Source: Auanema rhodensis (Eukaryota > Animalia > Nematoda). Taken from it: DNA of 64,000 nt. The translations under genes were made by a program, and so were the position numbers. Location of the stretch: the NCBI GenBank assembly GCA_964057225.1, contig OZ059896.1, forward strand, positions 18,538,001 to 18,602,000, written 5' to 3'. The notes under the pieces are model-generated. The model was not told where the DNA came from. It saw only the letters and a program-made list of their open reading frames with translations, and searched no databases. Below are positions 26,050-53,600 of this stretch, piece after piece; within the stretch, counting starts at the first letter, position 1; each line of letters opens with the position of its first letter.

Positions 26050-26240
26050 TTTGTTTACATTTAACAGTATGTTCACAAAATTGTTAGCTGGACGGCCGAT
26101 TCAATGTTTTTTGATGTTTTTTTATTTTTGTCATTCAATTTTTTAAATATTTATCAATGTATTCAAGAAGATTCTCTAAAAGTATTCCCGAATTTAAAAG
26201 AAATGAAAGCAGGCGAACAAATTTTTACTGAGTCAAAGGA
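26050..26240 (+). repeat. Fragment of the 477-bp satellite at the outer end of the right arm
   Basis: TTGTTTACATTTAACAGTATGTTCACAAAATTGTTAGCTGGACGGCCG...; ORF 26104 begins with the satellite peptide. Confidence 0.9.
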
Positions 26241-26948
26241 AAAAAAAAACAATGAATATTTAGAAAATTATCAAACAGCAGTGAACAAGTTGAATTTCAT
26301 TCACAAACAAGATGGAGATAATTATTCTGGTTAGAACTTCTAAAGTTATTATCATTTTATCAAGATTCGAGTCTGATAGCTTCATTTCTGTTAACAACAA
26401 AAAAAAGTGAAAGTTCAACAGTTGTAGGTTCATGTGTCATAATAGACACAAGAGTTTTGCTTTGTGTATCTGAATATGTTACTCTCGTTTTAGGTGTTAG
26501 TGAAACTTTCAAGTTAGAAGCTGATCAAAAGTTAATTAAGCATTAATTACTAGATTGCGTATGTCCGTGAAAAGTTTAACAATGCTTTTAGCTGTAAAGA
26601 TTCATTTTTGTACAAAAATGAGGATCACGAAAATTGTAGTCACTATTTCAATTCATTATTTGAGAGTATGTTAGTGACAGAACCGTGAAGATTATCAGTC
26701 CACGACGGCGAAAGCAGTTTCAATAGTTACAATACGGTATTTTCAAGAGAAAGCCAATAGAAAAAATGTTTTTATAGTTCCTATTTCAAAGATGCACTAT
26801 TGATTCGCTGTGATATACATAGGATAGATAATTCGAAATATGTTCTGAAGGACGACGTGTGAGACTTTGAAACAGTTGTTATAACATTGTGGGGCAAGAA
26901 AAAAACAATATAACGTTTTGAATAAAAATAAGTAAAAGTCTTTCATAA

Positions 26949-30100: not shown

Positions 30101-30937
30101 CTGCTAGTATTTTTTTCAATTGTATGAGATAATACAGAATAAAACATGTAAACTATCAGGTAATGATTTTTTTGAAACAAAAAATAACGACCCTGGTAGG
30201 ACTCGAACCTACAATCTTCGGATCCGAAGTCCGACGCCTTATCCATTAGGCCACAAGGCCATCTAAATCGCATTCAAATTAGACAATTTGTATAACCCAA
30301 CCCAGTAACTCACTAAAATGTAGTTGATTTTTTTTATCGATTCTAGGTCTGAAAAAATAATAATATGAAATAATACTTTTATTTTAGTACCTTATGAGAA
30401 AACCTTTGGGAAATTTTTGATATTTTCTCACTCTGAATAGGAACATTTTCGAGAATATTATCACTGCATTTGTTTTACTGCTAGTATTTTTTTCAATTGT
30501 ATGAGATAATATAGAATAAAACATGTAAACTATCAGGTAATGATTGTTTTAAAACAAAAAATAACGACCCTGGTAGGACTCGAACCTACAATCTTCGGAT
30601 CCGAAGTCCGACGCCTTATCCATTAGGCCACAAGGCCATGTAAATCGCATTCAAATTAGACAATTTGTATAACCCAACCCAGTAACTCACTAAAATGTAG
30701 TTGATTTTTTTTTATCGATTCTAGGTCTGAAAAAATAATAATATGAAATAATACTTTTATTTTAGTACCTTATGAGAAAACCTTCGGAAAATTTTTGATA
30801 TTTTCTCACTCTGTATAGGAACATTCTCGAGAATATTATCACTACATTTGTTTTACTGCTAGTATTTTTTTCAATTGTATGAGATAATACAGCATAAAAC
30901 ATGTAAACTATCAGGTAATGATTTTTTTGAAACAAAA

Positions 30938-30986
30938 ATCCGAAGTCCGCCTCCAAAAGACACCTTATCCATTAGGCTACAAGGCC
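30938..30986 (-). pseudogene. Rearranged tRNA-Arg 5' half (also at 32794-32842 and 33519-33567)
   Basis: Minus strand GGCCTTGTAGCCTAATGGATAAGGTGT-CTTTTGGAGG-CGGACTTCGGAT then directly the T-run: ~10-nt insertion, with T arm and 3' acceptor strand deleted. Confidence 0.9.
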
Positions 30987-33900: not shown

Positions 33901-35755
33901 TTCGGATCCGAAGTCCGACGCCTTATCCATTAGGCCACAAAGCCATCTAAATCGCATTCAAATTAGACAATTTGTATAACCCAACCCAGTAACTCACTAA
34001 AATGTAGTTGATTTTTTTTATCGATTCTAGGTCTGAAAAAATAATAATATGAAATAATACTTTTATTTTAGTACCTTATGAGAAAACCTTCGGGAAATTT
34101 TTGATATTTTCTCACTCTGAATAGGAACATTTTCGAGAATATTATCACTGCATTTGTTTTATTGCTAGTATGTTTTTCAATTGTATGAGATAATACAGAA
34201 TAAAACATGTAAACTATCAGGTAATGATTTTTTTAAAACAAAAAATAACGACCCTGGCAGGACTCGAACCTACAATCTTCGGATCCGAAGTCCGACGCCT
34301 TATCCATTAGGCCACAAGGCCTAGTAAATCGCATTCTAATTAGACAATTTGTATAACCCAACCCAGTAACTCACTAAAATGTAGTTGATTTTTTTTATCG
34401 ATTCTAGGTCTGAAAAAATAATAATATGAAATAATATTTTTATTTTGGTACCTTATGAGAAAACCTTCGGGAAATTTTTGATACTTTCTCACTCTGAATA
34501 GGAACATTTTCGAGAATATTATCACTGCATTTGTTTTACTGCTAGTATTTTTTTTAATTGTATGAGATAATACAGAATAAAACATGTAAACTATCAGGTA
34601 ATGATTTTTTTGAAACAAAAAATAACGACCCTGGCAGGACTCGAACCTACAATCTTCGGATCCGAAGTCCGACGCCTTATCCATTAGGCCACAAGGCCAT
34701 GTAAATCGCATTCAAATTAGACAATTTGTATAACCCAACCCAGTAACTCATTAAAATGTAGTTGATTTTTTTATCGATTCTAGGTCTGAAAAAATAATAA
34801 TATGAAATAGTACTTTTATTTTAGTACCTTATGAGAAAACCTTCGGAAATTTTTTGATATTTTCTCACTCTGAATAGGAACATTCTCGAGAATATTATCA
34901 CTGCATTTGTTTTAATGCTAGTATTTTTTCCAATTGTATGAGATAATACAGAATAAAACATGTAAACTATCAGGTAATGATTTTTTTAAAACAGAAAATA
35001 ACGACCCTGGCAGGACTCGAACCTACAATCTTCGGATCCGAAGTCCGACGCCTTATCCATTAGGCCACAAGGCCATCTAAATCGCATTCAAATTAGACAA
35101 TTTGTATAACCCAACCCAGTAACTCACTAAAATGTAGTTGATTTTTTTCATCGATTCTAGGTCTGAAAAAATAATAATATGAAATAATACTTTTATTTTA
35201 GTACCTTATGAGAAAACTTTCGGGAAATTTTTGATATTTTCTCACTCTGAATAGGAACATTTTCGAGAATATTATCACTGCATTTGTTTTATTGCTAGTA
35301 TGTTTTTCAATTGTATGAGATAATACAGAATAAAACATGTAAACTATCAGGTAATGATTTTTTTAAAACAAAAAATAACGACCCTGGCAGGACTCGAACC
35401 TACAATCTTCGGATCCGAAGTCCGACGCCTTATCCATTAGGCCACAAGGCCATGTAAATCGCATTCTAATTAGACAATTTGTATAACCCAACCCAGTAAC
35501 TCACTAAAATGTAGTTGATTTTTTTTATCGATTCTAGGTCTGAAAAAATAATAATATGAAATATTATTTTTATTTTAGTACCTTATGAGAAAACCTTCGG
35601 GAAATTTTTGATACTTTCTCACTCTGAATAGGAACATTTTCGAGAATATTATCACTGCATTTGTTTTACTGCTAGTATTTTTTTCAATTGTATGAGATAA
35701 TACAGAATAAAACATGTAAACTATCAGGTAATGATTTTTTTGAAACAAAAAATAA

Positions 35756-35828
35756 CGACCCTGGCAGGACTCGAACCTACAATCTTCGGATCCGAAGTCC
35801 GACGCCTTATCCATTAGGCCACAAGGCC
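35756..35828 (-). tRNA. tRNA-Arg(TCG), representative minus-strand copy
   Basis: 73-nt cloverleaf identical to 38621-38693. Confidence 0.95.
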
Positions 35829-37499
35829 ATGTAAATCGCATTCAAATTAGACAATTTGTATAACCCAACCCAGTAACTCATTAAAATGTAGTTGATTTTT
35901 TTTATCGATTCTAGGTCTGAAAAAATAATAATATGAAATAATACTTTTATTTTAGTACCTTATGAGAAAACCTTTGGGAAATTTTTGATACTTTCTCACT
36001 CTGAATAGGAACATTCTCGAGAATATTATCACAGCATTTGTTTTACTGCTAGTATTTTTTTCAATTGTATGAGATAATACAGAATTAAACATGTAAACTA
36101 TCAGGTAATGATTTTTTTAAAACAGAAAATAACGACCCTGGCAGGACTCGAACCTACAATCTTCGGATCCGAAGTCCGACGCCTTATCCATTAGGCCACA
36201 AGGCCATGTAAATCGCATTCTAATTAGACAATTTGTATAACCCAACCCAGTAACTCACTAAAATGTAGTTGATTTTTTTTATCGATTCTAGGTCTGAAAA
36301 AATAATAATATGAAATATTATTTTTATTTTAGTACCTTATGAGAAAACCTTCGGGAAATTTTTGATACTTTCTCACTCTGAATAGGAACATTTTCGAGAA
36401 TATTATCACTGCATTTGTTTTACTGCTAGTATTTTTTTCAATTGTATGAGATAATACAGAATAAAACATGTAAACTATCAGGTAATGATTTTTTTGAAAC
36501 AAAAAATAACGACCCTGGCAGGACTCGAACCTACAATCTTCGGATCCGAAGTCCGACGCCTTATCCATTAGGCCACAAGGCCATGTAAATCGCATTCAAA
36601 TTAGACAATTTGTATAACCCAACCCAGTAACTCATTAAAATGTAGTTGATTTTTTTTATCGATTCTAGGTCTGAAAAAATAATAATATGAAATAGTACTT
36701 TTATTTTAGTACCTTATGAGAAAACCTTCGGAAATTTTTTGATATTTTCTCACTCTGAATAGGAACATTCTCGAGAATATTATCACTGCATTTGTTTTAC
36801 TGCTAGTATTTTTTTCAATTGTATGAGATAATACAGAATAAAACATGTAAACTATCAGGTAATGATTTTTTTAAAACAGAAAATAACGACCCTGGCCGGA
36901 CTCGAACCTATACAAATTGTCTAATTTGAATGCGATTTAGATGGCCTTGTGGCCTAATGGATAAGGCGTCGGACTTCGGATCCAAAGATTGTAGGTTCGA
37001 GTCCTACCAGGGTCGTTACTTTTTGTTTTAAAAAAATCATTACCTGATAGTTTACATGTTTTATTCTGTATTATCTCATACAATTGAAAAAAATACTAGC
37101 AATAAAACAAATGCAGTGATAATATTCTCGAAAATGTTCCTATTCAGAGTGAGAAAATATCAAAAATTTCCCGAAGGTTTTTTCATAAGGTACTAAAATA
37201 AAAGTATTATTTCATATTATTATTTTTTCAGACCTAGAATCGATAAAAAAATCAACTACATTTTAGTGAGTTACTGGGTTGGGTTATACAAATTGTCTAA
37301 ATTGAATGCGATTTAGATGGCCTTGTGGCCTAATGAATAAGGCATTGGACTTCGGATCCGAAGATTGTAGGTTCGAGTCCTGCCAGGGTCGTTATTTTTT
37401 GTTTCAAAACAATCAATACCTGATAGTTTACATGTTTTATTCTGTATTATCTCATACAATTGAAAAAAATACTAGCAATAAAACAAATGCAGTGATAAT

Positions 37500-37607
37500 A
37501 TAAAACATGTAAACTATCAGGTAATGATTTTTTTGAAACAAAAAATAACGACCCTGGCAGGACACGAACCTACAATCTTCGGATCCGAAGTCCGACGCCT
37601 TATCCAT
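37500..37607 (-). repeat. Local ~108-bp inverted insert of tRNA 3' part + trailer (second copy 38339-38446)
   Basis: ATAAAACATGTAAACTATCAGG...CGACCCTGGCAGGACACGAACC...CCTTATCCAT replaces ~20 bp of spacer inside a plus-strand unit. Confidence 0.92.
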
Positions 37608-38620
37608 CAGAGTGAGAAAATATCAAAAATTTCCCGAAGGTTTTCTCATAAGGTACTAAAATAAAAGTATTATTTTATATTATTATTTTTTCAGACCTAG
37701 AATCGATAAAAAAATCAACTTCATTTTAGTGAGTTACTGGGTTGGGTTATACAAATTGTCTAATTTGAATGCGATTTAGATGGCCTTGTGGCCTAATGGA
37801 TAAGGCGTCGGACTTCGGATCCAAAGATTGTAGGTTCGAGTCCTACCAGGGTCGTTACTTTTTGTTTTAAAAAAATCATTACCTGATAGTTTACATGTTT
37901 TATTCTGTATTATCTCATACAATTGAAAAAAATACTAGCAATAAAACAAATGCAGTGATAATATTCTCGAAAATGTTCCTATTCAGAGTGAGAAAATATC
38001 AAAAATTTCCCGAAGGTTTTCTCATAAGGTACTAAAATAAAAGTATTATTTCATATTATTATTTTTTCAGACCTAGAATCGATAAAAAAATCAACTACAT
38101 TTTAGTGAGTTACTGGGTTGGGTTATACAAATTGTCTAATTTGAATGCGATTTAGATGGCCTTGTGGCCTAATGAATAAGGCATTGGACTTCGGATCCGA
38201 AGATTGTAGGTTCGAGTCCTGCCAGGGTCGTTATTTTTTGTTTCAAAACAATCAATACCTGATAGTTTACATGTTTTATTCTGTATTATCTCATACAATT
38301 GAAAAAAATACTAGCAATAAAACAAATGCAGTGATAATATAAAACATGTAAACTATCAGGTAATGATTTTTTTGAAACAAAAAATAACGACCCTGGCAGG
38401 ACACGAACCTACAATCTTCGGATCCGAAGTCCGACGCCTTATCCATCAGAGTGAGAAAATATCAAAAATTTCCCGAAGGTTTTCTCATAAGGTACTAAAA
38501 TAAAAGTATTATTTTATATTATTATTTTTTCAGACCTAGAATCGATAAAAAAATCAACTTCATTTTAGTGAGTTACTGGGTTGGGTTATACAAATTGTCT
38601 AATTTGAATGCGATTTACAT

Positions 38621-38693
38621 GGCCTTGTGGCCTAATGGATAAGGCGTCGGACTTCGGATCCGAAGATTGTAGGTTCGAGTCCTGCCAGGGTCG
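38621..38693 (+). tRNA. tRNA-Arg(TCG), representative copy
   Basis: GGCCTTG TG GCCT AATGGATA AGGC G TCGGA CT-TCG-GA TCCGA AGATT GTAGG TTCGAGT CCTGC CAGGGTC G: all four stems pair, A box TGGCCTAATGG, B box GTTCGAGTC, no intron, followed by a TTATTTTTT Pol III terminator. Confidence 0.97.
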
Positions 38694-39129
38694 TTATTTT
38701 TTGTTTCAAAAAAATCATTACCTGATAGTTTACATGTTTTATTCTGTATTATCTCATACAATTGAAAAAAATACTAGCAGTAAAACAAATGCAGTGATAT
38801 TTATCTCGAGAATGTTTCTATTCAGAGTGAGAAAATATCAAAAATTTTCCGAAGGTTTTCTCATAAGGTACTAAAATAAAAGTATTATTTCATATTATTA
38901 TTTTTTCAGACCTAGAATCGATAAAAAAATCAACTACATTTTAGTGAGTTACTGGGTTGGGTTATACAAATTGTCTAATTTGAATGCGATTTACATGGCC
39001 TTGTGGCCTAATGGATAAGGCGTCGGACTTCGGATCCGAAGATTGTAGGTTCGAGTCCTGCCAGGGTCGTTATTTTTTGTTTCAAAAAAATCATTACCTG
39101 ATAGTTTACATGTTTCATTCTGTATTATC

Positions 39130-39487
39130 CGTTCCGTTATGCTCCCGCGTCGATCTTACAGACCAATGGAGTCTACAAGATGAGCGTGGTAGTATTCCAG
39201 ATGTAGCGGTTAAACATGGAGCATAAGGATAAACATAAGACTCGAGAAAGATTGGTTTATTATATCTACGTGATTACAATAAGATACATATAACTAAGTA
39301 AAGGTTAAACTAATAGAGAACAGAGAGAGAACGACCAACCATCCATGATCGTCCCTGAGGCAAAGCTGAAGTGTTGTAATATGGAAAAGGGCGGGTCGTC
39401 TTCTCTCAGTCTCGCATTCTCTGACTCTAACCCGCCTGCTACAGCTTCGTCATATGAATGTAATGCATTGATCATTCGAATGGAACG
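39130..39487 (-). repeat. 3' LTR (358 bp)
   Basis: CGTTCCGTT...AATGGAACG; three substitutions found relative to 50258-50615. Minus-strand TATATA (39287-39292) and AATAAA (39256-39261). Confidence 0.97.
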
Positions 39488-39489
39488 TG

Positions 39490-39498
39490 CCCTTTTTC
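39490..39498 (-). promoter_or_regulatory. Putative polypurine tract
   Basis: Minus strand GAAAAAGGG-CA immediately precedes the 3' LTR; short. Confidence 0.55.
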
Positions 39499-40030
39499 GA
39501 GTTTATGTCGCGTCCTCGCGACAATCAAAAGTTTTGACTTGAACAACTGTAGCAGAAGGGTTAATGTGTGTATTAAAGTACATGAAAATATACTTATAAA
39601 ATAATAATAAAAAAGTTTTTAAGTATAACGCTCTAACAAGTGTAGACAAAAAGTTAACTATTTTTTTGCTAGAGCTCGGTTGTTTGTTTCAATTTGTGTG
39701 AGTTTAGAAAAAAAAAGAAAAGTTTTGCGTAATACCAAATAACTTCCAAATTGAGTCATTGATTACTCAAGTGAAGACTGTTGCTCAGATATTGTTGCAA
39801 ACTATGTCTTTCATTTTTCATCTCATCTAGTATGGGGAAGTTAGTTGAAATTAGGAAGGTTCGAACTATATGATAAAGAATTATCTTCTCACATTTCCCG
39901 TGTTCATTATGCTCTAGTTTACTTTTTGACTTAAGAGTGACTTGTTTTAGAGGACTCGTTACAAAATTTGTGTTCTAGTATTACTTTAAAGAAAGTTATT
40001 ACAAAACAATTTACAATAAAATCTCATGAG

Positions 40031-42667
40031 TTAATGGTTTTTTCTTGATGGTAGCCAATTTGTATCCGAAAGGTCTTCTGGTTCGTCATAAGAGTCTTCA
40101 TCGTTGTTGTTTCCGTTGATAACCTCTATGATTTCAATATCGCTGTCATCGTCTGAGCTGTCTGTACGTGTACTGGGCTTATGTGCGATTCCGTCATCTG
40201 TTTCTCGATTAAATAATTTGAGATTGTCCTTGTGAACGTCTTGGATCTTTCCGAAAAGGTTTTTGATTTGAACCATGTTTCCCTTCACATTAATAACTTC
40301 AAATGGTCCATCATAAGCTTTCCGAAGCTTTTGTCCTGGCTTGTGCATTTTCACAGCTAACATAACGCAGTCTCCTTCTTGTATATCTCTTTCGTGAGTG
40401 CGTAATCGAGCATCATGTTTCTTTTTTGCTAATTCTTGATGCTTTTCCAAATTTTCTTGAATGATTGTTTTCTGTTTGCTTCGGATTTTCTCAATATTTT
40501 CAATCTCCTTTGAAATTTCCTTTGGTTCAGTTGTTTCGGGGTATAAATCTTTATCCAATCTCAAACGGCTTTCTTTCCCGAATAGTACAACGTATGGTGA
40601 TATTCCTGTGGTTGCATGCGTTGTGGTGTCCAATGCAAAGGTAATTTTTGGCAAAAACATGTCCCAATCAGTGACATCTTCGTTGAGATAATGTGTGAGT
40701 TCTTCTTCTAACGTTCTATGAAGTCTTTCTACTTGTCCATTGGAATTCTTCTGATGTGGGAGTGTTGATTCATGTTTGATACCGAGTTTTTCGCACATGT
40801 CTTCAAATTTCCTTGATAGGAAGTTGGAACCGCGGTCTGTTATTAAGCGATTCGGTGGTCCATAGACATATACAAAGTTTCTGAGGAATCTATCAATGAC
40901 AACTTCACTAACAATTGTTGGTATGGCGATAGTTGTAGCCCATTTGGAGAAAGAGTCTTGTATTGTGAGGACATAGCTGTTGTTCCTTTTTGATGTTGGG
41001 AATGGTCCCATGATATCCATATGTATTCTCTCAAATGGTTTTGTTGGTATGTTAAATTGACCCATTGGTTGTACGGTCATAGCATGAGGATCTTTCTTTC
41101 GTTGTGCACATTTGATGCACTGTTTTACGTATTTTGCTATGTCGTTCTGCATGTTAGTCCAGGAAAATCTTCGTAATATGGCTTCTTTTGTTTTGTTGAT
41201 TCCTTGATGCGCCCCGATTGTTGGGTCTTCATGAAATTCTTCAATGATTTTGTTAATTATATCACTATCCGATGGCAATATTAACGCTGGATGAGGTCTT
41301 TTGACGCTTGGTTTTGTGTAGAGTAAGTTGTTTATAACACAATAACGATCATTTTGAATCATATTTTTCTTCGTTCTGTATTCAATCTCAGCTATTGTTC
41401 TCTTGATCCAAGGAGTATTTTGTTGGATTGAGCTGAATTCTGGTAACTTCACAACATTTACTTGTTGTGTCTCAATTTTCTCTTTCGAATTCGTCTTTTG
41501 TTTCTTGTTCGACGTCTTTGGATCGTTAGCTTCATCTCCAATGTATCTAGAGAGTGCGTCACAGACTTTGTTTAATCTGCCTTCTCGATATTTGATCTCA
41601 ATATCGTATTCCTGTATGACCAATTGGAACTTTGCTAGTCTTCCAAATAGGTCTCTTCTAGTTAGTAAGCTTGTCAATGAGCGATGATCGGTGATGCAAA
41701 TTGAATGTGATCCAAGTATGTATGTTCGAAACTGTGCTAGAGCGTAAACTAAGCCTAAGGCTTCTATCTCTATGGGAGCATAGTTACGTTCTGCTTTTAC
41801 TAATTTCCTACTTGCGAAAGCAATTGGATGTAAGTTCTTGAATGGTTCGTTTGGATCTTCGGGCTGCAGTAATACTGCGCCTATGGCGATGTTGCTGCCA
41901 TCACTTTCAATGATGAAAGTTCGGTCTGATCGTGGTGGTTTCAGTACCGGTGCTTCGATTAGTCGTTCCTTTAGCTTATCTAGTGAACGTTGACATTCGC
42001 TAGTCCAATTGAAGTCTGCGTCTAGCTTAGTAAGGTCATACAGCGGACTTGCTATATGTGCAAAATCTTTAATAAATTTTCTAAAGAATCCGACCATTCC
42101 TAAGAATGCTCTTACTCCTGTGGGTGTTTGAGGAGCAGGGTAATCGCGGATGGCGGAAACTTTCTGTTGATCGGGCTTAACTCCGTCTCTTCCGACAATG
42201 AGTCCGAGAAATTTCACTTCTGGTCTTGCAAATGAACATTTCTTGAGTTTAATCTTAAATCCTAGTCTTTCTACAGCGAGTAATACTTCTTTGATGTCTT
42301 TGAGGTGTTGTTCTGCGCTGTCTGATATGACTAGTAAATCGTCCAAATAGACAAATAGTCGGCATTTACATTTACTTTGGAGATATCTCACGGCTGTTTG
42401 AAAGGTATGTGGCGCACCACATAATCCCATAGGCATTCTCCTGTATTGATAAGTCCCACTATTGGTGGTAAAGAATGTGAGTGGTCTATCCTTCTTCGAT
42501 AATGGTATTTGGAAAAAGCCAGAAACAAGATCAAAATTAGAAAAGTATTGTGATCCAGCCGCTAAGTCAATGATATCAGAGATGTTAGGAATCACATATG
42601 TTTGTTTTCTTGTAACGTTATTTAAGGCTCGGAAATCCGTAACGAAACGGAATGTTTCGTCTTTTTT
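40031..42667 (-). CDS. Pol C-terminal part: reverse transcriptase, RNase H, integrase (third segment of the single frame)
   Basis: KKDETFRFVTDFRALN, FDLVSGFFQI, MPMGLCGAP, YLDD (42338-42349). RNase H IIESDGS..IGAVL, IEALGL, TDHRSL. Integrase zinc finger H..H..CIKC, HMDIMGP / ITDRGSNF / VERLHRTL (DDE), GPF motif, acidic tail. Confidence 0.96.
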   Translation of the reverse strand, partial: KKDETFRFVTDFRALNNVTRKQTYVIPNISDIIDLAAGSQYFSNFDLVSGFFQIPLSKKDRPLTFFTTNSGTYQYRRMPMGLCGAPHTFQTAVRYLQSKCKCRLFVYLDDLLVISDSAEQHLKDIKEVLLAVERLGFKIKLKKCSFARPEVKFLGLIVGRDGVKPDQQKVSAIRDYPAPQTPTGVRAFLGMVGFFRKFIKDFAHIASPLYDLTKLDADFNWTSECQRSLDKLKERLIEAPVLKPPRSDRTFIIESDGSNIAIGAVLLQPEDPNEPFKNLHPIAFASRKLVKAERNYAPIEIEALGLVYALAQFRTYILGSHSICITDHRSLTSLLTRRDLFGRLAKFQLVIQEYDIEIKYREGRLNKVCDALSRYIGDEANDPKTSNKKQKTNSKEKIETQQVNVVKLPEFSSIQQNTPWIKRTIAEIEYRTKKNMIQNDRYCVINNLLYTKPSVKRPHPALILPSDSDIINKIIEEFHEDPTIGAHQGINKTKEAILRRFSWTNMQNDIAKYVKQCIKCAQRKKDPHAMTVQPMGQFNIPTKPFERIHMDIMGPFPTSKRNNSYVLTIQDSFSKWATTIAIPTIVSEVVIDRFLRNFVYVYGPPNRLITDRGSNFLSRKFEDMCEKLGIKHESTLPHQKNSNGQVERLHRTLEEELTHYLNEDVTDWDMFLPKITFALDTTTHATTGISPYVVLFGKESRLRLDKDLYPETTEPKEISKEIENIEKIRSKQKTIIQENLEKHQELAKKKHDARLRTHERDIQEGDCVMLAVKMHKPGQKLRKAYDGPFEVINVKGNMVQIKNLFGKIQDVHKDNLKLFNRETDDGIAHKPSTRTDSSDDDSDIEIIEVINGNNNDEDSYDEPEDLSDTNWLPSRKNH

Positions 42668-45568
42668 CTAAACGAGAACGACAGGGCTGTTGAACAAAGA
42701 TGTCGATCGTTCTATTATCCCTTGCTCGAGCATTTCTTGGAATTGTCTTTCTACCTCTTCCTGTTTCCCGAGAGGTATACGTGAAATTCGTGGCTTTGGC
42801 ATATCCATATCCGTTCGTAGTGGTATCTTGTGTTCTACTGGTCCTTTGAACAATCCTATCTTTTTATCTTCATTGAGGAATGCCTTCTTACGTTGACGAA
42901 TGATGTTTCGTAGTTCGTCTTTTTGTCGTTGCGTGAGATCAGCCTCTTTTAGGTCAAGTTCTTTCATGAAATCACCAGGGAAGTGAGGTAATTTGCCTTC
43001 CCAGTCTGCTTCTGGTGGAATATAGTCGTACTGTTGTTCTGTTGAGAAGATTTCATAGTCCGGTATAGATCCTATTTCGGCTTCTGCAATTACAGTGCCG
43101 GCCGGTATTTCTATGAATTCTTTAGAATTGTTCCGGAATTGGATATTGATGGAGTTAACATCGCGAAATGCTGTGTCGTATCGAGGTGAGAGAGGTTTAT
43201 TGTCGTTTGGTTTAATCATAGCGATTAAGTCTTCTCCGATTGGGTTCTCTAATTGGACTTGGAAATTAAAAACTTGTCGTGGAAGTAGACTCCGCGGTTC
43301 CAAGGTTATCAAATTAACAGTTTTTGATATCCTGTTAATATCCCCGTTAATTCCGCTAGCCAAAGGTACTACATGATTTCCAATTTCCAGTGTTCTTTTG
43401 TATGGTCTTAGTTTCATGCCAATGTTTTGACAGTCAAGTGTTTTCATGAAATCTAATCCAATCAACGCTGGCGATGGACAGTCTTTGTCGTCTGATATGA
43501 AGAATGTATGGTCGATTTCGTAACCGGCTATTTCGACGGTTAAGTCGATAGTACCAATGAATACAAATTCTGATCCGTTCGCTGTTGTTGCTCTTAATGT
43601 ATTCTTCTTAACAAAGTCATTCAAAGCTAAGTAGTGTAGTGTCGATATTCTTATGTAACTGACGGACAAACCTGAGTCCCATAAAGTTAGGATCAGTCTA
43701 TCGTTAACAGTCATCCATAGAAGTGGTAGTGCTTGATCTTTCTTTTTGGAAATCGAGCAAACTAATGGTAGTGCAATTGGTATGAATGTGAGCATTGATG
43801 GATAGTATTGTTTCATTATGTGTCTTGGAATCGGTTGGTCCGGATGACTAACTAATTCCAAAGTTTCTTCGTATGTTGGTAGATCACTGTCGTGATCTTT
43901 GAGTGCAATATGCATAACTGGTATGCCTACTGGTTTGAAGAAATAGATCTTTACAATGAAACCTATCACAAAGAGTATGATGGTAAATAATGTAATTGCA
44001 CCGATCGTTATTAGTGTTCGCTCAATCGTTCCTGCAATTGTATCGATGAATGACTTCCATGTGCTCTTGGTGAATTCTTGAGCTTTCGATATGTAGTCGC
44101 TACTTTTCTTTAGTACACTGAATGTAGCTGATATCTTTGGATCATTGTGAATTGTGTGAAGAACGTGATTCTGACGAATCGATGCTAAACTCGCACCGTA
44201 AGCTATGGCTGTGGTCATTGAGTATACACGAGACGATAAATTAGTGTATAAGTGAGCTCCGGTGAATTTTAATGGTGTTATTTTTTCGTGATGAAGTCCG
44301 TCCCACATTGATACAAGACTGACGTCTGCAGTCCCATTAATTCCTTTCCATTCACCTTCGCTAGACCAGATATCTGTTGGTACGTGATCACAGCTTATTT
44401 CTTTACCATGAGGTAAAAGATCCTTGGATCCGGGTGCTGCAAACAGTAACTGTCCGTCTTGTGTCCAGACTGGGGTTTCGAGATAGCATGTGCCATTTAC
44501 GGTGTGATTGTGATAAATGGTTTTCTCTAGCACTGTAGGGCATACATGTATATGCAAAATTTCATTGCCTACAAACCGTGCGGCTATATCTTCTCTTCCC
44601 AGTATTGTTCGCATTGCGATTGTTGGTTCAATTTGTAGAATTGATTTCCATAATTCCAGATACCGATTTTGTATCTCGCAAATCGATTCGTATGATTCTT
44701 CAAAATGTTTCTGCAATTCCTCTTGGATCATTGTAGTAGCATACTGTAAATGATCTTGGGCTATTTTGTTCGATATATTTTGACGAAACTCTTGTACCGA
44801 GTCAATTTTCGTTGCTATGTATCTCGCATTTGCTTCCACTAAATTTGAGGTTTCTACTGATGGTGTTGAGGAAGATCGGTTTTTTCGAATCAATGTTGGA
44901 GAGGCTTCGGTTGTCTCTTGTATTTTTGGAATCTGTGCGTCTTTGTATATGGCATAGCTTCTTGTTGTTGTTGGCGAACGAGCGGTTGATGTTGTTGTGC
45001 GTGCTGTTGTCGCAGCGGTCGTGTGAGGCGCCGTTGTTGATGGCTGTTGCCTCCATGATGGTGCTCTTGTGGTGGTTGTTGCATTTGTGTGAGGATTGTT
45101 CGTTATATGCGGCTGTATTGTGGTAACTGATTGGATTGTTCCCTTCTGTTCGATCAAAGGTTGGACTGGTGTCACAACCGCGCCGCTAGCCGCGCCGCCT
45201 GCAGCGACGCTAGCCGCGCCGCCTGCCGCGACGCTGGATGTCCGCGTTGCGATTTGCCGAAAATTTGTTTCATTTTCCTCTGCCATTAAGATTTGAAGTT
45301 GTTCTTGTGTTATCCTACTTGATGTATAAGGTGTTTTTACATTATTGAGCAGGGGTAAAAATATTTCCAATAATAATTTCTTTGAAAGATTGCTGGGCTT
45401 GATCAGCTTAGGGTGTGGACCGATCGGTATTCCATAATTATTCTTCCTGTCATAAAATAGTTTATCTGTATTTGGCATGAATTGTCGTGATGCTGGCAAT
45501 TTTATAAATTTTCTGTCATCAATAAATGCTGCAGTTTTATTCCATCGTACTGTTGTGAGGGTTTTTAG
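42668..45568 (-). CDS. Env C-terminal half (mucin-like tract, gB/chuvirus-G-like core, TM) fused in frame to aspartic protease and RT N-terminus
   Basis: Thr-rich tract; HLQY...ICEIQ...LWKSILQIEPT..MRTILGREDIAARFVGNEILHIHVC...TCYLETPV matches the herpes gB domain III/IV pattern (QLQF..WC..Q..LW....INP....GR.V.AR.LGDV...C...CYSRP). TM LITIGAITLFTIILFVIGFIV (~43940-44014); protease LWDSG (43670-43684) and LIGLDFM; ends SPVVLV-TAG. Confidence 0.88.
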   Translation of the reverse strand, partial: LKTLTTVRWNKTAAFIDDRKFIKLPASRQFMPNTDKLFYDRKNNYGIPIGPHPKLIKPSNLSKKLLLEIFLPLLNNVKTPYTSSRITQEQLQILMAEENETNFRQIATRTSSVAAGGAASVAAGGAASGAVVTPVQPLIEQKGTIQSVTTIQPHITNNPHTNATTTTRAPSWRQQPSTTAPHTTAATTARTTTSTARSPTTTRSYAIYKDAQIPKIQETTEASPTLIRKNRSSSTPSVETSNLVEANARYIATKIDSVQEFRQNISNKIAQDHLQYATTMIQEELQKHFEESYESICEIQNRYLELWKSILQIEPTIAMRTILGREDIAARFVGNEILHIHVCPTVLEKTIYHNHTVNGTCYLETPVWTQDGQLLFAAPGSKDLLPHGKEISCDHVPTDIWSSEGEWKGINGTADVSLVSMWDGLHHEKITPLKFTGAHLYTNLSSRVYSMTTAIAYGASLASIRQNHVLHTIHNDPKISATFSVLKKSSDYISKAQEFTKSTWKSFIDTIAGTIERTLITIGAITLFTIILFVIGFIVKIYFFKPVGIPVMHIALKDHDSDLPTYEETLELVSHPDQPIPRHIMKQYYPSMLTFIPIALPLVCSISKKKDQALPLLWMTVNDRLILTLWDSGLSVSYIRISTLHYLALNDFVKKNTLRATTANGSEFVFIGTIDLTVEIAGYEIDHTFFISDDKDCPSPALIGLDFMKTLDCQNIGMKLRPYKRTLEIGNHVVPLASGINGDINRISKTVNLITLEPRSLLPRQVFNFQVQLENPIGEDLIAMIKPNDNKPLSPRYDTAFRDVNSINIQFRNNSKEFIEIPAGTVIAEAEIGSIPDYEIFSTEQQYDYIPPEADWEGKLPHFPGDFMKELDLKEADLTQRQKDELRNIIRQRKKAFLNEDKKIGLFKGPVEHKIPLRTDMDMPKPRISRIPLGKQEEVERQFQEMLEQGIIERSTSLFNSPVVLV

Positions 45569-48500
45569 TTATCTTAGTAAATTGATCGTTGCCTTAATGA
45601 ATTCGCTTTTCTTCTCTTCCTCGTCAGTTAGTATACGTTTCCTTATTGGTGGCATTTGTATGAACGTTTGTAGGACTTCTTGTCGTGATGGAACTGTCAG
45701 TCCTTCTTCAATTATAACTGGTGTATTGGTTAAATTGAGAGCTATGCTTTCAATTCGTTCGCGATATGAACCTTCTTTCTTCCTTATGATTTCATCGAAT
45801 TCGATTACTGTCAAACGATCTGATATTTGTTCGAGAAGCTGTTCAGATGTTAAGTATGATATTGCTGCCTTTGTAGTAATGGCTAATTCTCTTTGTGCTA
45901 TATAATATAGCAGAGCTTCTTCTTTATCACTGAAATCGTATTGTTTGAGAAAATGTCGAACAGAATGTTCATTTATTTGAATTCTGAAGAAAAATTCGAA
46001 TTTTTCTTTATGTGATGTTATCCATGCCTTTAGAGAGTATGTTGGATCTACTAAACGTCTTCCTTTGATTATAGGAATAATTGAAGTAATACCGGGATTA
46101 CTCATTAATGGTCTTAGGAAAGAATATGGACAGACGTGAAGCAATACTGTTTCATAATCTTCAACTTCGTTGATCCGATCTTGATCCAGTGGGAAAGAAC
46201 ATCCTTCGGTGACTGCACGTTTTGGTCTTTTAAACGGCAGCTTTTTGAACTCTCTTTCAATAAGGGTGGTTATATTGTTGTCGTTTGGAAATTTAGAAAG
46301 AATGATATAATTTCCTGATGTCGTATGGAACGCTAGCTGCCTGAAGCAAGAAGAAATAGGTTTCGGAGTTGGTTTGCTCGAAAGAATAAGTGCCGATTGT
46401 GTACTAGGGATTAAAATAGTATCTTGACTAATGATAGCGTCATATGTATGCATATCGATGTAATTACAACGTGAAGCAGTGGTTTGTGGGTCCCATATTA
46501 TTATTGATGTACTTGATTCACAATTACCATGATGTGCATTGCATCCTTCCGTGTTTAATATTAAGTTTGACAATATTGTATCGTCAGGCATACGGGTCAT
46601 GACTCCGCGCTCTAATATTAGACGTGACCGCTCCTCGCACGCGTCGCGGTTGAACGCGCGCGCTGGGTCATAGGAGGGCTCCGGAGTTGCTTGGGTGATA
46701 CTATCAATGCGTTGCAGTTCCATGTTATTCCACTTGCGATCGCGGATCGCCTGTCTGCATTCGCGCTCTCCTATAGGCTGTATTCTATTTATTGTTCTGT
46801 TCGTATCGCGGAGGAATAGCAGGTCTCGTACGCATAACTTGTGTACTTCCTCTGAACAACGCCACGCATCCCATTCGTGTGCTGTGTGATTTCTTGTGTA
46901 CAGATGACCTTCTGTACGTAGCACATGGTTTTTCTCTGTTAATCTGCATTTTCTGATTGTTGGTGGCATAAGTAATGCGCCTCCTGTTGCTCTTGTACAG
47001 ATTTGATATGTAGATGCACAGTGCAAGAATATTGCTGCTGTTATTGCCATGATAACTGTGAGCGTCAAAGGCGAAAGGGTGACAGAGTTTATTCTTGTTG
47101 AGCTTCTATCTCTTCCTCTTGAGTTGTCTCTTGGATTTTTGAATTGAACTCTTCTTTGTCCGTTGTTGTTATTGAATCTACCTCGTTGGTTGTTATGACG
47201 AAAATTATAATTTCTTTGATGCCAATCAGAACTCGATTGCCTATTATCTTGTTCGTTATAATTTGTACGGCGATTATTATTAGCGAAAGAACCGTAACGG
47301 TTTCGATTATTATTGAAATTAGAAAAGTTTTTATTTTTTTGATAATTTTGATTATTTTGATAATTTTGATTATTTCTTATCATTTGGTTATCGCGTTGAT
47401 AATTGCGATTAAATGTTTGGCTATCTCGTCTCTCATCATTACGCGCAAAGGGTGCTAGTGCTTTGTTCACAGCGTTGACCAACATCGATTGCGTGTCTGT
47501 TGTTTGGTTCACTATCGATTCCTCCCAGCGAGCTGCTTCAATCGCTTCTGTGAAGGATTTTGGCTTTGCTCGGATCACAGCTGGTTTTAGAGAATTTTTA
47601 AGTCCTCTGAGGAATGTTGATCTCAGTATTTGATCTTTATGTGGGTCATCAGATGCAAATGCACTCAATGCCATTGTTCTTAATGCTTGGGCGTATGCAT
47701 CAATTGTCAATTCCCCTTGCGTGGTGTTTTGAAGGTTAATAAGTGCAGGGTCTTGGTTATATTCAGGGCAGAGCTTCGATGTTAGTGCTCTAATCAGATC
47801 ATTCCACGAACCAGTTGTTTTAAGTTGTTCAGGAACTTGTCTGTAAGCTTCTTCTGCTGCTTCATTTTTGAGAAGCAAAGGAAGAAGTGCTAACCTTTCA
47901 GGGATAATAAGGCCAATGGCATTAGCAAACAAGTTGAATTTACCCGTAAAATCACGGAAGTTACGACTGCCGTCGTAAGTTGGACAGTAAGGCGAAAGTA
48001 AGGCTTGCGCGATTGTTGTTTTCCCTGCCCCAGGTAGTGAGGAAACAGCTTCCGTCATGATGTTATTCGTACGGGTAGATGGTATTTTGATCGTTCTACC
48101 TGTTATTGGTGGGGTCTCCAAAATAGGGGTTGTTTGCGTGGATGGAATAGGTCTATTGGGTGCCTTAGGAAGTGAGTCTGTTGTTGTTAAGATGGGAGTA
48201 GAAGTTTGATGAATACTGGTATTTGGTGCAGGTGGTTGAATTGGTGAGATATTAATGTTAGGGACTGATGAATATCTGCTTTTGCGCTTGGTGTTGAAAG
48301 TTTTATCTTTAGGCGAAAGGTTAAAAAGATCAGTAACAATGTTTCTAAGAGAACTAAGCCCACCCGCGCTAGAAGTTTTTGAAAATAAAGGGGAATCGGT
48401 TGGTTCGGTTAGTGAGAGAGAGAGAGAAGCGTCGCTGATGTTTTGATTTTTCTTATTTTTATTAGAATTAGAGGAGCGTACCTTTTTAGGAGTGATCGGT

Positions 48501-48751
48501 GTTTGTTCCTCCACAATGATTGATAGTTCTTCTTCTATAGTAGGTACGTAGTCCGGGTCGCCTAGTTGTTCAGTAGGTGAGACAGAATCAGTAGTAGGAA
48601 TAAGGAAATTATCCGGCTTCTTGTCGACTTTCTGCTCCTCTTCTAATATAGCGACGTCTTGAGCTCGAGCTCGACTTCTGGTAAAGGGAGCTGAGTCTTG
48701 GGAATCGAAATGCGTACTTATAGGTACGGCTGAATGGAATCTCTTAGCCAC
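45569..48751 (-). CDS. Gag (capsid + N/Q/R-rich region) fused via internal signal peptide to Env N-terminal half
   Basis: Ty3-type capsid motifs YDGS..F..F, WNDLIRAL, QGELTIDAY, FLRGL, FTEAIEAA. No CCHC knuckle. Hydrophobic VTLSPLTLTVIMAITAAIFLHCAST (47009-47083), then a Cys-rich ectodomain with N-x-S/T sequons and furin site KRPKR (46217-46231). The track start is GTG; the first ATG is at 48058. Confidence 0.87.
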   Translation of the reverse strand: MAKRFHSAVPISTHFDSQDSAPFTRSRARAQDVAILEEEQKVDKKPDNFLIPTTDSVSPTEQLGDPDYVPTIEEELSIIVEEQTPITPKKVRSSNSNKNKKNQNISDASLSLSLTEPTDSPLFSKTSSAGGLSSLRNIVTDLFNLSPKDKTFNTKRKSRYSSVPNINISPIQPPAPNTSIHQTSTPILTTTDSLPKAPNRPIPSTQTTPILETPPITGRTIKIPSTRTNNIMTEAVSSLPGAGKTTIAQALLSPYCPTYDGSRNFRDFTGKFNLFANAIGLIIPERLALLPLLLKNEAAEEAYRQVPEQLKTTGSWNDLIRALTSKLCPEYNQDPALINLQNTTQGELTIDAYAQALRTMALSAFASDDPHKDQILRSTFLRGLKNSLKPAVIRAKPKSFTEAIEAARWEESIVNQTTDTQSMLVNAVNKALAPFARNDERRDSQTFNRNYQRDNQMIRNNQNYQNNQNYQKNKNFSNFNNNRNRYGSFANNNRRTNYNEQDNRQSSSDWHQRNYNFRHNNQRGRFNNNNGQRRVQFKNPRDNSRGRDRSSTRINSVTLSPLTLTVIMAITAAIFLHCASTYQICTRATGGALLMPPTIRKCRLTEKNHVLRTEGHLYTRNHTAHEWDAWRCSEEVHKLCVRDLLFLRDTNRTINRIQPIGERECRQAIRDRKWNNMELQRIDSITQATPEPSYDPARAFNRDACEERSRLILERGVMTRMPDDTILSNLILNTEGCNAHHGNCESSTSIIIWDPQTTASRCNYIDMHTYDAIISQDTILIPSTQSALILSSKPTPKPISSCFRQLAFHTTSGNYIILSKFPNDNNITTLIEREFKKLPFKRPKRAVTEGCSFPLDQDRINEVEDYETVLLHVCPYSFLRPLMSNPGITSIIPIIKGRRLVDPTYSLKAWITSHKEKFEFFFRIQINEHSVRHFLKQYDFSDKEEALLYYIAQRELAITTKAAISYLTSEQLLEQISDRLTVIEFDEIIRKKEGSYRERIESIALNLTNTPVIIEEGLTVPSRQEVLQTFIQMPPIRKRILTDEEEKKSEFIKATINLLR

Positions 48752-50244
48752 CTTGCTAGAACTCTTGGTTTGAAAAAACCTTGAGTGCTTGGTAACGTGT
48801 GGGATGTTGAGACGTTAAAGAATGCGGTGAATAAGGATGAGGATGTAGGCAAAATGAGAAAGGCTTTGGAGAGCGACCGGTGTCGTATCGACAACTTGTG
48901 AGAATGAGGTCGATGCCTTGGCCAATGGCGATGGATCCGCCTTCTACTGTGTGATATCGGGACTCTGGTGCTCTCCGTATTTTCTCTGTAGTTGACAATC
49001 TGATTCACAAAACATCTGGGGTGACCAAGCTGTTATTTTACAAAACGTTTAGTGTAATTCGTAATATTCGTTCAATTACAGCACATTTTACTGATTTGTA
49101 TGCAACCATTTTCCTCATGCTAACTAAACTTATGTTTTGTTACACTAGTTTCTCGACCATGTGGTGTGTCATCTTGCAACAAAACTTATGGTGTAATTCG
49201 TAACATGCTTTTGATAAAAGAGCAGTTTAACAATAAATGTGCACCAATTTCTCTTTTGTGACCAAAAATAATTTTTGTTTCTTTACAATCTGGTTTTCAA
49301 ATACATTTGGTGTAGCTCGCATGTTTCGTTGTAACAAAAGTCATGGGATTCGTAATATTAGTTTTACAAAAGAGCGTTTCGCAATGATGAATGTAGGTAT
49401 TTCGTGATCAGAAATCGAATTTTTAAATAAAAGCAGAGTTAAATGGCTAAATATTACAAGAACTAGTATTAAAGTTGGAATAAGGTTCAATGCGTGAGTC
49501 TTATGCTTCTGAACAACAATAACGGTATGAGGAAGGTGACATTCAGTAAGGGGAGAAAATCCAAACCGATATGCTTTAGCCAACACGACCTGTGTTAATC
49601 ATGATTCAAATTCGAGATAACATTTTTCAACAGGATTTTTCGGACTATAGCGATCTATGAATTAACAATCCTCCCTTTTTGGTGAGGTTTCCCGTGTAAT
49701 TTTTTTCATGCGTACTGATTATAAATTTAGGATGTTAGAAGCAAAATTTGTCTGAACGAAATCGTAACGCAAAATAAAATAGTCCTGATCGCAAAACAAA
49801 CTTCATCCACGAAATATAAAGATATAACCGAAGTTATTCTTTCCTTGAAGCCAAAATTAATCCTTAAAAAGGAGAAGGCGTGGGAAATACAAATTAACAA
49901 TTACTTTAGGTGAATTTGTTCACTAATTCAGCCTAAAGCCCTCATCAAGCTTCAAGGTTGGGTAACAGAGCATTTCAGATGTTATAAGCAAGGATACGAA
50001 ATTTAAAGGTTCAGACGAATGAATTTTTGTGAACAAACGGGAAAATAATAATCTCGAAACGTATAATCCTTCTTTAAAAAAAAAGGATTCCTTGCCTCTG
50101 TTCCCATTTAACGTTGTTGGCCCCTCCGTATTGTGTTAAGACATAGAGTAGATGGTATGAGAAAAAGAGAGATGAAAGAAATTTGAAGATGAATTAACAA
50201 CACAAACATTAAAGAGAAGGAAAAAAAAATTGTGATAAGTTCGA

Positions 50245-50257
50245 GGTGGAACCTCCA
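50245..50257 (-). promoter_or_regulatory. Primer binding site for tRNA-Gln
   Basis: Minus strand TGGAGGTTCCACC directly abuts the 5' LTR. It is complementary to GGTGGAACCT-CCA, the 3' end of metazoan tRNA-Gln (13 nt). Confidence 0.9.
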
Positions 50258-50615
50258 CGTTCCGTTATGCTCCCGCGTCGATCTTACAGACCAATGGAGT
50301 CTACAAGATGAGCGTGGTAGTATTCCAGATGTAGCGGTTAAACATGGAGCATGAGGATAAACATAAGACTCGAGAAAGATTGGTTTATTATATCTACGTG
50401 ATTACAAAAAGATACATATAACTAAGTAAAGGTTAAACTAATAGAGAACAGAGAGAGAACGACCAACCATCCATGATCGTCCCTGAGGCAAAGCTGAAGT
50501 GTTGTAATATGGAAAAGGGCGGGTCGTCTTCTCTCAGTCTCGCATTCTCTGACTCTAACCCACCTGCTACAGCTTCGTCATATGAATGTAATGCATTGAT
50601 CATTCGAATGGAACG
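50258..50615 (-). repeat. 5' LTR (358 bp)
   Basis: Direct repeat of 39130-39487, adjacent to the PBS. Confidence 0.97.
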
Positions 50616-53600
50616 ATACTAGCAGTAAAACAAATGCAGTGATAATATTCTCGAAAATGTTCCTATTCAGAGTGAGAAAGTATCAAAAATTTCCCGAAGG
50701 TTTTCTCATAAGGTACTAAAATAAAATTATTATTTCATATTATTATTTTTTCAGACCTAGAATCGATAAAAAATATCAACTACATTTTAGTGAGTTACTG
50801 GGTTGGGTTATACAAATTGTCTAATTAGAATGCGATTTACATGGCCTTGTGGCCTAATGGATAAGGCGTCGGACTTCGGATCCGAAGATTGTAGGTTCGA
50901 GTCCTGCCAGGGTCGTTATTTTTTGTTTCAAAACAATCAATACCTGATAGTTTACATGTTTTATTCTGTATTATCTCATACAATTGAAAAAAATACTAGC
51001 AATAAAACAAATGCAGTGATAATATTCTCGAAAATGTTCCTATACAGAGTGAGAAAATATCTACAATTTCCCGAAGGTTTTCTCATAAGGTACTAAAATA
51101 AAAGTATTATTTCATATTATTATTTTTTCAGACCTAGAATCGATAAAAAAAATCAACTACATTTTAGTGAGTTACTGGGTTGGGTTATACAAATTGTCTA
51201 ATTTGAATGCGATTTAGATGGCCTTGTGGCCTAATGGATAAGGCGTCGGACTTCGGATCCGAAGATTGTAGGTTCGAGTCCTACCAGGGTCGTTATTTTT
51301 TGTTTTAAAAAAATCATTACCTGATAGTTTACATGTTTTATTCTATATTATCTCATACAATTGAAAAAAATACTAGCAGTAAAACAAATGCAGTGATATT
51401 ATTCTCGAGAATGTTCCTATTCAGAGTGAGAAAATATCAAAAATTTTCCGAAGGTTTTCTCATAAGGTACTAAAATAAAAGTATTATTTCATATTATTAT
51501 TTTTTCAGACCTAGAATCGATAAAAATATCAACTACATTTTAGTGAGTTACTGGGTTGGGTTATACAAATTGTCTAATTTGAATGCGATTTACATGGCCT
51601 TGTGGCCTAATGGATAAGGCGTCGGATTTCGGATCCGAAGATTGTAGGTTCGAGTCCTGCCAGGGTTGTTATTTTTTGTTTCAAAACAATCATTACCTGA
51701 TAGTTTACATGTTTTATTCTGTATTATCTCATACAATTGAAAAAAATACTAGCAGTAAAACAAATGCAGTGATAATATTCTCGAAAATGTTCCTATTCAG
51801 AGTGAGAAAGTATCAAAAATTTCCCGAAAGTTTTCTCATAAGGTACTAAAATAAAAGTATTATTTCATATTATTATTTTTTCAGACCTAGAATCGATAAA
51901 AAAAATCAACTACATTTTAGTGAGTTACTGGGTTGGGTTATACAAATTGTCTAATTTGAATGCGATTTAGATGGCCTTGTGGCCTAATGGATAAGGCGTC
52001 GGACTTCGGATCCGAAGATTGTAGGTTCGAGTCCTACCAGGGTCGTTATTTTTTGTTTTAAAAAAATCATTACCTGATAGTTAACATGTTTTATTCTGTA
52101 TTATCTCATACAATTGAAAAAAATACTAGCAGTAAAACAAATGCAGTGATATTATTCTCGAGAATGTTCCTATTCAGAGTGAGAAAATATCAAAAATTTT
52201 CCGAAGGTTTTCTCATAAGGTACTAAAATAAAAGTATTATTTCATATTATTATTTTTTCAGACCTAGAATCGATAAAAATATCAACTACATTTTAGTGAG
52301 TTACTGGGTTGGGTTATACAAATTGTCTAATTTGAATGCGATTTACATGGCCTTGTGGCCTAATGGATAAGGCGTCGGATTTCGGATCCGAAGATTGTAG
52401 GTTCGAGTCCTGCCAGGGTTGTTATTTTTTGTTTCAAAACAATCATTACCTGATAGTTTACATGTTTTATTCTGTATTATCTCATACAATTGAAAAAAAT
52501 ACTAGCAGTAAAACAAATGCAGTGATAATATTCTCGAAAATGTTCCTATTCAGAGTGAGAAAGTATCAAAAATTTCCCGAAAGTTTTCTCATAAGGTACT
52601 AAAATAAAAATATTATTTCATATTATTATTTTTTCAGACCTAGAATCGATAAAAAATATCAACTACATTTTAGTGAGTTACTGGGTTGGGTTATACAAAT
52701 TGTCTAATTTGAATGCGATTTAGATGGCCTTGTGGCCTAATGGATAAGGCGTCGGACTTCGGATCCGAAGATTGTAGGTTCGAGTCCTACCAGGGTCGTT
52801 ATTTTTTGTTTTAAAAAAATCATTACCTGATAGTTAACATGTTTTATTCTGTATTATCTCATACAATTGAAAAAAATACTAGCAGTAAAACAAATGCAGT
52901 GATATTATTCTCGAGAATGTTCCTATTCAGAGTGAGAAAATATCAAAAATTTTCCGAAGGTTTTCTCATAAGGTACTAAAATAAAAGTATTATTTCATAT
53001 TATTATTTTTTCAGACCTAGAATCGATAAAAATATCAACTACATTTTAGTGAGTTACTGGGTTGGGTTATACAAATTGTCTAATTTGAATGCGATTTACA
53101 TGGCCTTGTGGCCTAATGGATAAGGCGTCGGATTTCGGATCCGAAGATTGTAGGTTCGAGTCCTGCCAGGGTTGTTATTTTTTGTTTCAAAACAATCATT
53201 ACCTGATAGTTTACATGTTTTATTCTGTATTATCTCATACAATTGAAAAAAATACTAGCAGTAAAACAAATGCAGTGATCATATTCTCGAAAATGTTCCT
53301 ATTCAGAGTGAGAAAGTATCAAAAATTTCCCGAAAGTTTTCTCATAAGGTACTAAAATAAAAATATTATTTCATATTATTATTTTTTCAGACCTAGAATC
53401 GATAAAAAATATCAACTACATTTTAGTGAGTTACTGGGTTGGGTTATACAAATTGTCTAATTTGAATGCGATTTAGATGGCCTTGTGGCCTAATGGATAA
53501 GGCGTCGGACTTCGGATCCGAAGATTGTAGGTTCGAGTCCTACCAGGGTCGTTATTTTTTGTTTTAAAAAAATCATTACCTGATAGTTAACATGTTTTAT

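Follow-up and report, generated by a model that had tools for sequence, protein, structure and literature searches.

A decayed Ty3/gypsy retroelement of Auanema rhodensis with a predicted gB-type envelope between Gag and Pol in one reading frame

We analysed a window of 64,000 nucleotides from the nematode Auanema rhodensis (GenBank assembly GCA_964057225.1, contig OZ059896.1, forward-strand positions 18,538,001 to 18,602,000; coordinates below count from the first letter of the window), in which a minus-strand retroelement carries an envelope (Env) segment between its capsid and its protease. We consider it likely that this is a recently inserted, now broken Ty3/gypsy long terminal repeat (LTR) retroelement of the published GAG-ENV-POL type, and that intact relatives would make one membrane-spanning polyprotein with a predicted fusion protein of the glycoprotein B (gB) type.

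Three stop-to-stop open reading frames of the minus strand (48814-45569, 45568-42668 and 42667-40031) abut in a single phase. The joint frame, 48814-40031, has 2,928 codons, counting two internal stops (codons 1082 and 2049) and the stop at its end. The original prediction had put these frames in one phase with gaps that translate cleanly, and the junction peptides are as it quoted them; its start at 48751 is a GTG codon, the first in-frame ATG lying at 48058. Pfam and hydropathy also bear out the gene order that it gave, namely Gag, signal-like segment, glycoprotein, transmembrane (TM) segment, protease (PR), reverse transcriptase (RT), RNase H (RH) and integrase (IN). The Pfam matches run from Retrotrans_gag/Ty3_capsid through Monjiviricetes_fusion and Glycoprotein_B to aspartyl protease, RVT_1, RNase H, H2C2 and rve, and the two strongest hydrophobic segments of the frame by hydropathy are at 47092-47000 and 44029-43913. 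No CCHC knuckle is present in the Gag of this element. The PR-RT-RH-IN order with gypsy-type domains, together with the capsid, places the element in Ty3/gypsy (Metaviridae), and the presence of two direct LTRs, a primer-binding site (PBS) and a likely polypurine tract (PPT) is that of an LTR retrotransposon of this group. For a profile of its relatives, the best match in the PDB is Ty3 Gag-Pol (E 2.7e-37). An insert within env, the LTR ends, an ATG-free leader and a surrounding tRNA array, all described below, had been overlooked. Coordinates are collected in the table.

Table. Features of the element and its insertion site, in window coordinates.
Feature	Coordinates	Strand	Remarks
5' LTR	50258..50615	-	358 bp; begins CGTTCC, ends GGAACG; boundary also in one run contig continuing into the PPT side
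Primer-binding site, tRNA-Gln type	50245..50257	-	directly after 5' LTR
ATG-free leader	48059..49015	-	957 nt between successive ATGs; 252 stop-free codons in Gag frame (48814-48059)
Gag	47090..48058	-	capsid 47887-47495; Asn/Gln/Arg-rich tail; PF03732 E 6.6e-6, PF19259 E 5.3e-5
Internal signal-peptide-like hydrophobic segment	47006..47089	-	hydropathy
Env N-half (matches N-terminal part of gB)	46217..47005	-	ends in furin-type RPKR (46228-46217)
Env insert, predicted helical orphan 'head' domain, ~320 codons	45254..46216	-	premature stop 45571-45569
Env insert, Ser/Thr/Pro-rich stalk	44804..45253	-	39% S/T/P over last 150 residues; best 40-mer 62.5%
Env C-half (gB central helix onward)	44030..44803	-	PF24664, PF00606
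Transmembrane anchor	43913..44029	-	Kyte-Doolittle (KD19) 2.66
Aspartic protease (DSG)	43409..43732	-	Pfam and motif
Reverse transcriptase (YLDD) and RNase H	41606..42781	-	Pfam and motif; premature stop 42670-42668
Integrase (HHCC, core, weak SH3-like match) and acidic tail	40031..41266	-	Pfam and motif
Purine-rich tract, likely PPT	39488..39502	-	before 3' LTR
3' LTR	39130..39487	-	358 bp
Host tandem tRNA-Arg(TCG) array	27543..63712	.	63 genes, ~377-bp unit; split by element

The envelope segment was examined as two separate halves rather than as a whole ectodomain or trimer, and profile and fold comparisons gave gB matches for both. For the C-terminal half, Pfam returned PF24664 Monjiviricetes_fusion (E 4.8e-13, 48.4 bits against a cut-off of 27) and, below its own cut-off, PF00606 Glycoprotein_B (E 5.2e-9). 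A profile of the env relatives matches herpesvirus gB chains (E 6.5e-11). The N-terminal half has no glycoprotein match in Pfam. Its AlphaFold2 model, built with 58 relatives, has a mean predicted local distance difference test score (pLDDT) of 81.9, mostly above 90 over residues 31-250, and a predicted template-modelling score (pTM) of 0.51. Foldseek searches of the PDB with this model gave gB as the best match (E 1.5e-10), with 107 matches at E ≤0.001; TM-scores were near 0.3, the insert being part of the model. Matches in BFVD were to glycoproteins of negative-strand RNA viruses, herpesviruses and entomopoxviruses (best E 9.7e-14). By profile and predicted fold, then, the class III (gB/chuvirus-like) assignment of the original prediction holds, and Env is a predicted membrane fusogen by likeness of fold. 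Env is not a compact gB, however: its halves are separated by ~470 codons that lack gB similarity and contain the first stop.

Relatives were collected with an HMMER env search that found 269 proteins, of which the best 150, together with P0001 from Auanema, gave the 151 analysed here; a word-based search for homologs of the entire env gave no match in 7,993 candidates. The closest relatives come from Auanema and Caenorhabditis, and the sources named among the 30 that were looked up are Auanema sp. JU1783, Caenorhabditis, Aphelenchus and Acrobeloides. P0001 shows 59% identity in each env half, and a single predicted protein of this relative spans Gag through RT. Capsid, Env, PR, RT, RH and IN occur in one predicted protein in 4/151 relatives, and two more lack only a detected PR. 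Env follows the integrase in 3/151. Two protease-like domains after env were seen in P0011, P0013, P0018 and P0128. In a 50-row RT/RH tree, the element groups with C. brenneri P0153 and C. japonica P0010 (RT identity 62% and 55%, respectively; Shimodaira-Hasegawa-like approximate likelihood ratio test 95), and this grouping is nested within a 10-row clade of env-carrying elements (support 100). The element thus joins the env-carrying nematode rows. A metagenome scan with P0033 gave no relative; of the 79 loci obtained in a scan with RT patterns, none carries env, and 31 were used as outgroup rows.

Between the RPKR furin-type site and the gB central helix, Env carries the insert of ~470 codons. 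Its first part aligns with eight relatives, seven of them from Auanema; against P0001, the head is 46% identical over the first 213 aligned residues and 26% over the next 101. Two models predict an ordered, helical head, with pLDDT of 80-94 over residues 311-420 in this copy and 76-92 over residues 101-240 in P0055. Pfam has no match in the head of this element and no family in the inserts of 29 of the 30 relatives with long inserts, all 29 of which were scanned (P0143 was left out, being 86% identical there to P0150). An Atlas feature search with the P0001 insert peaked at a score of 0.84, the chance level. With the P0055 model, Foldseek found no PDB match at E ≤0.001, although here the head was modelled with flanking sequence and could still have a known fold. 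Over the head, the best VIA-align row reached Z 4.4, and gB rows appeared only over residues 1-78.

Insert length varies widely among the 89 relatives with both env halves (0-473 aa), being at least 100 aa in 30 and below 50 aa in 57. The 30 long inserts fall into 15 groups with no mutual similarity at E 1e-4, five of them with two or more members and ten singletons. A Ser/Thr/Pro-rich stretch occurs in 21 long inserts and lies within the last 40% in 17/21. The strict furin motif is present on the N-terminal side of 19/30 long inserts and on the C-terminal side of 2/30, versus 2/84 mid-insert windows. Excision of the insert by furin at both ends was considered as a rule for the family and rejected, the strict motif being found on both sides in 2/30. 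Overall, this is consistent with a variable, stalk-borne head that would stay on the anchored half after cleavage, and we hypothesize that the head could bind host cells and serve in attachment. It is well possible, if short of probable, that the insert instead has no part in binding and is an enlarged spacer in the furin loop or a glycan shield. The range of lengths, the 57/89 relatives below 50 aa and the lower conservation of the insert than of the env core (46% and 26% versus 59%) all speak for a spacer or shield, whereas the ordered helical domain predicted for the first part, in this copy and P0055, and the conservation of that part within several separate families speak against it. gB relies on separate receptor-binding partners. 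If the head does bind host cells, it would illustrate how target cells can be chosen by a gB-type fusogen that has no partner glycoproteins.

How would such a protein be made? A signal-like hydrophobic run is present at the Gag-Env junction in 21/21 relatives that have a capsid followed by a complete env start, and one strong TM lies between env and protease in 29/29 relatives with env followed by protease. By hydropathy, the ectodomain is therefore flanked by a signal-like segment and a TM, as in GAG-ENV-POL errantiviruses. The original prediction had the signal peptide send Env into the ER lumen and the TM return Pol to the cytosol; the conservation of both segments is in its favor, and the topology itself we infer. 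Gag would be synthesized in the cytosol, with the internal signal sequence pulling Env into the endoplasmic reticulum (ER), where signal peptidase would free it. The single TM would then stop transfer, leaving PR-RT-RH-IN back in the cytosol, where the Env tail would hold these domains until PR released itself. Tethering could gather Gag and Pol on the membrane that holds Env, with budding there and products in a ratio of about 1:1:1 unless splicing altered it. A furin-like protease would cut at RPKR, making the helical insert the new N-terminus of the anchored half, on its Ser/Thr/Pro stalk; the exposed inserted domain would most likely be an attachment or shielding head. The particle may pass between host cells, the probable routes being from somatic cells into the germ line or among germ-line cells. 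With its two membrane crossings, such a polyprotein is a testable model of how capsid, envelope and enzymes could be packaged without frameshifting or env splicing.

Alternatively, the proteins could be separate products, with the single frame serving as storage only and splicing either removing env from a Gag-Pol message or giving env a message of its own. In Cer1, a second protein is made by cis- and SL1 trans-splicing (PMC10309623, PMC3315495). A 1:1:1 ratio would be costly, and a splice acceptor could precede the ATG-free leader. We nevertheless regard separate products as unlikely. All relatives examined have the signal segment and TM in frame at the junctions, and a simple pattern scan of 50615-47900 revealed no TTTCAG-type acceptor. 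Splicing and a polyprotein could also coexist.

The two internal stops bear on whether this copy represents its family. Of 11 runs with matches, four, from three studies, were compared along the element interior. Contigs of all four differ from this copy inside both stop codons, so we attribute the stops to decay of this copy. For the ATG-started frame, the numbers predicted from LTR divergence are ~34 substitutions and 1.6 stops; two stops are seen. Of the first 40 of 155 listed differences, 34 lie in the frame, a count among those listed rather than a total measurement, and their spread over codon positions (13/9/12) is as in neutral decay. At least four indels within the frame are among those listed, three of them multiples of three; the remaining one is a minority 7-nt loss in the part before the ATG, in one run. 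Other copies without the stops were thus seen in run contigs, although no single contig spans the element and one run may be the source of this copy. An internally deleted copy was also observed, in runs X3 and X9, whose contigs skip 2,515 bp (43056-45572), from the env insert to past the protease.

These data bear as well on the idea that the stop inside env is programmed and leaky, yielding a secreted Env fragment plus rarer full polyprotein. The stop is followed by CTA, a context favoring read-through, and falls in the variable insert rather than in a gB core domain. We consider this highly improbable, and programmed read-through is largely refuted by the differences at that codon in contigs of 4/4 runs; moreover, Auanema relatives are open through the matching region, and two stops are what neutral decay leads one to expect. 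That env entered an ordinary gag-pol element by a one-off nested insertion, or was joined to it by chimeric assembly, is scarcely credible: the missing target duplication and 17-bp loss described below do indicate some rearrangement or assembly trouble in the array, but single run contigs bridge both the Gag-Env and Env-PR junctions (4/4 runs), relatives share the same fusion at 59% env identity, no internal repeats flank env, and nested insertion is thereby refuted.

Several points weigh against the polyprotein reading. The topology is based on Kyte-Doolittle windows rather than SignalP or DeepTMHMM, and a second, weak hydrophobic stretch just before PR occurs in 4/29 relatives and in this element (Kyte-Doolittle value 1.52). 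A protease-type motif precedes the signal segment in this element and 5/21 relatives, versus a 5% background; as the pattern was drawn up after seeing this element, the evidence for a protease site there is weak. The long proteins of the relatives are gene predictions, some of which may be spliced models, and the RT/RH tree is a quick one in which the published elements' own sequences are not included. Run contigs drop rare variants, so other stop-bearing copies are possible. The 57/89 relatives almost without an insert imply that the head is dispensable for the family, making its role a guess. The LTR ends are atypical and a target duplication is missing. Finally, expression, cleavage, particles and fusion are predictions from sequence; among 14 runs, none listed as carrying the element was RNA, a result with no bearing on expression.

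Upstream of the Gag ATG, no ATG occurs in any frame over 957 nt, the next longest such gap being 333 nt. For this region, which was chosen after the fact, the absence of ATG recurs in ~1/5000 base shuffles and in 4% when the peptide is held fixed, and the chance that its 252 open codons contain no stop is ~2.5e-6. The annotated Met start lies 35-62 residues before the capsid match in 10/26 capsid matches, and the ATG at 48058 is comparable, at 38. The leader could be read through a non-AUG start or as part of a spliced exon, or an upstream ATG could have been lost.

TG...CA ends and a target duplication of 4-6 bp are typical of Ty3/gypsy elements, if not strictly defining. Here the LTRs, 99.2% identical with three differences, have CG...CG ends. 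At the junction of array and element, 17 bp of the repeat unit are missing and there is no target-site duplication; recombination between two insertions, or a later deletion, could have caused both. Given these ends and the missing duplication, standard LTR finders may overlook the group. Once the adjoining 2 nt at the PPT and the 2 nt that open the PBS are counted in, the ends of the LTRs make up an 8-bp perfect inverted repeat (50622-50608; 39489-39482 / 50263-50256), as expected if integrase trims two bases and leaves CG ends. Other run contigs match the LTR end and PBS and then diverge, which suggests that this LTR end is common to related families. Supplement 1 of PMC13524379 gives, for elements of C. 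latens and C. tropicalis, a Gln PBS identical to the PBS 12-mer of this copy.

Insertion at a fixed position relative to tRNA genes is unsupported: the site is 59 bp past the end of one tRNA and 226 bp before the next, and among three other flanks a single one looks like the beginning of a tRNA, at a distance of 5 nt. That flank is the loose end of run X10 at 50258, with an A-box-like pattern judged by eye. In an Auanema rhodense preprint (10.64898/2026.08.27.747507), 19,554 tRNA genes and germline-restricted tRNA arrays are reported, so the position of an element within an array of this kind is not necessarily a sign of targeting, and this copy may belong to the DNA that somatic cells eliminate. 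Elsewhere in the window, the tRNA array changes strand around 36900, and 36909-39129 holds a higher-order unit of 376+463. An AT-rich satellite occupies 1-17553 (period ~450-477 bp, higher-order periods 1.4-1.9 kb), and between satellite and array lies a large palindrome (17940-26241) with arms of 2,694 bp at 99.7% and 1,267 bp at 97.6%.

More tentatively, the furin loop of nematode Gag-Env-Pol elements may be a cassette slot that accepts exchangeable folded heads on a mucin-like stalk, a built-in attachment domain with unrelated heads in different lineages; in the present lineage, the integrase may join CG-3' rather than CA-3' ends and the AUG-free leader may give a Gag extended by 252 residues through non-AUG initiation or splicing. 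We regard this combination as possible but doubtful.

Among known fusogens, herpesvirus gB and the G proteins of nyami-, rhabdo- and chuvirus-like viruses match both halves of Env by profile and fold, with a furin-type site between the halves. Identity is 9-15%, and here the protein is part of a retroelement polyprotein with an insert of ~470 aa at the cleavage loop. Atlas virus, a nematode belpaovirus, is another nematode endogenous element with a captured viral fusogen, although its envelope is phlebovirus-like; it reportedly belongs to the BEL/Pao lineage, with env last. Cer1 of C. elegans, as described in PMC10309623 and PMC3315495, is likewise a nematode Ty3/gypsy element with no gag-pol stop and a PBS adjoining the LTR, but it has no env, uses a tRNA-Pro primer and encodes CERV from a spliced message.

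The closest precedents are the GAG-ENV-POL elements themselves. Sacco, Lau, Godinez-Vidal and Kaloshian 2022 (J Gen Virol, doi 10.1099/jgv.0.001739) is reported to describe a metavirus with a captured RNA-virus glycoprotein and env before pol, as here, and may already describe the single ORF, topology or insert. Chary and Hayashi (eLife 2026, PMC13524379), who credit Sacco 2022 for nematode GAG-ENV-POL, describe errantiviruses of nematodes, bryozoans and flatworms as having only gB-type env, in GAG-ENV-POL order; the statement in the original prediction that gag-env-pol metaviruses had been reported in nematodes was correct. These 'ancient errantiviruses' have Ty3/gypsy pol, env between gag and pol, and a gB-type ectodomain between signal peptide and TM, and the present element shares both their gene order and their type of ectodomain. 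As here, the Caenorhabditis elements of that study have a tRNA-Gln PBS, and its elements have LTRs of similar length. A lineage-specific cysteine-bridge configuration (C1a/d, C2a/c) is also defined there for the group. Its master table holds no Auanema element, though both Auanema genomes gave ENV-POL hits, and we found neither a polyprotein nor a frameshift mentioned in its main text. Three features were not found in print: the ~470-aa insert at the furin site (no mention in that main text or in a library search), the CG...CG ends without target duplication in a tRNA-Arg array (nothing relevant on tRNA-linked insertion in nematodes or CG LTR ends) and the ATG-free leader, the literature searches not covering subscription journals. 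Env between gag and pol is therefore already published, and this copy adds to it a probably unlisted rhabditid family and a clean single-frame case, with the head-and-stalk insert as the best lead.

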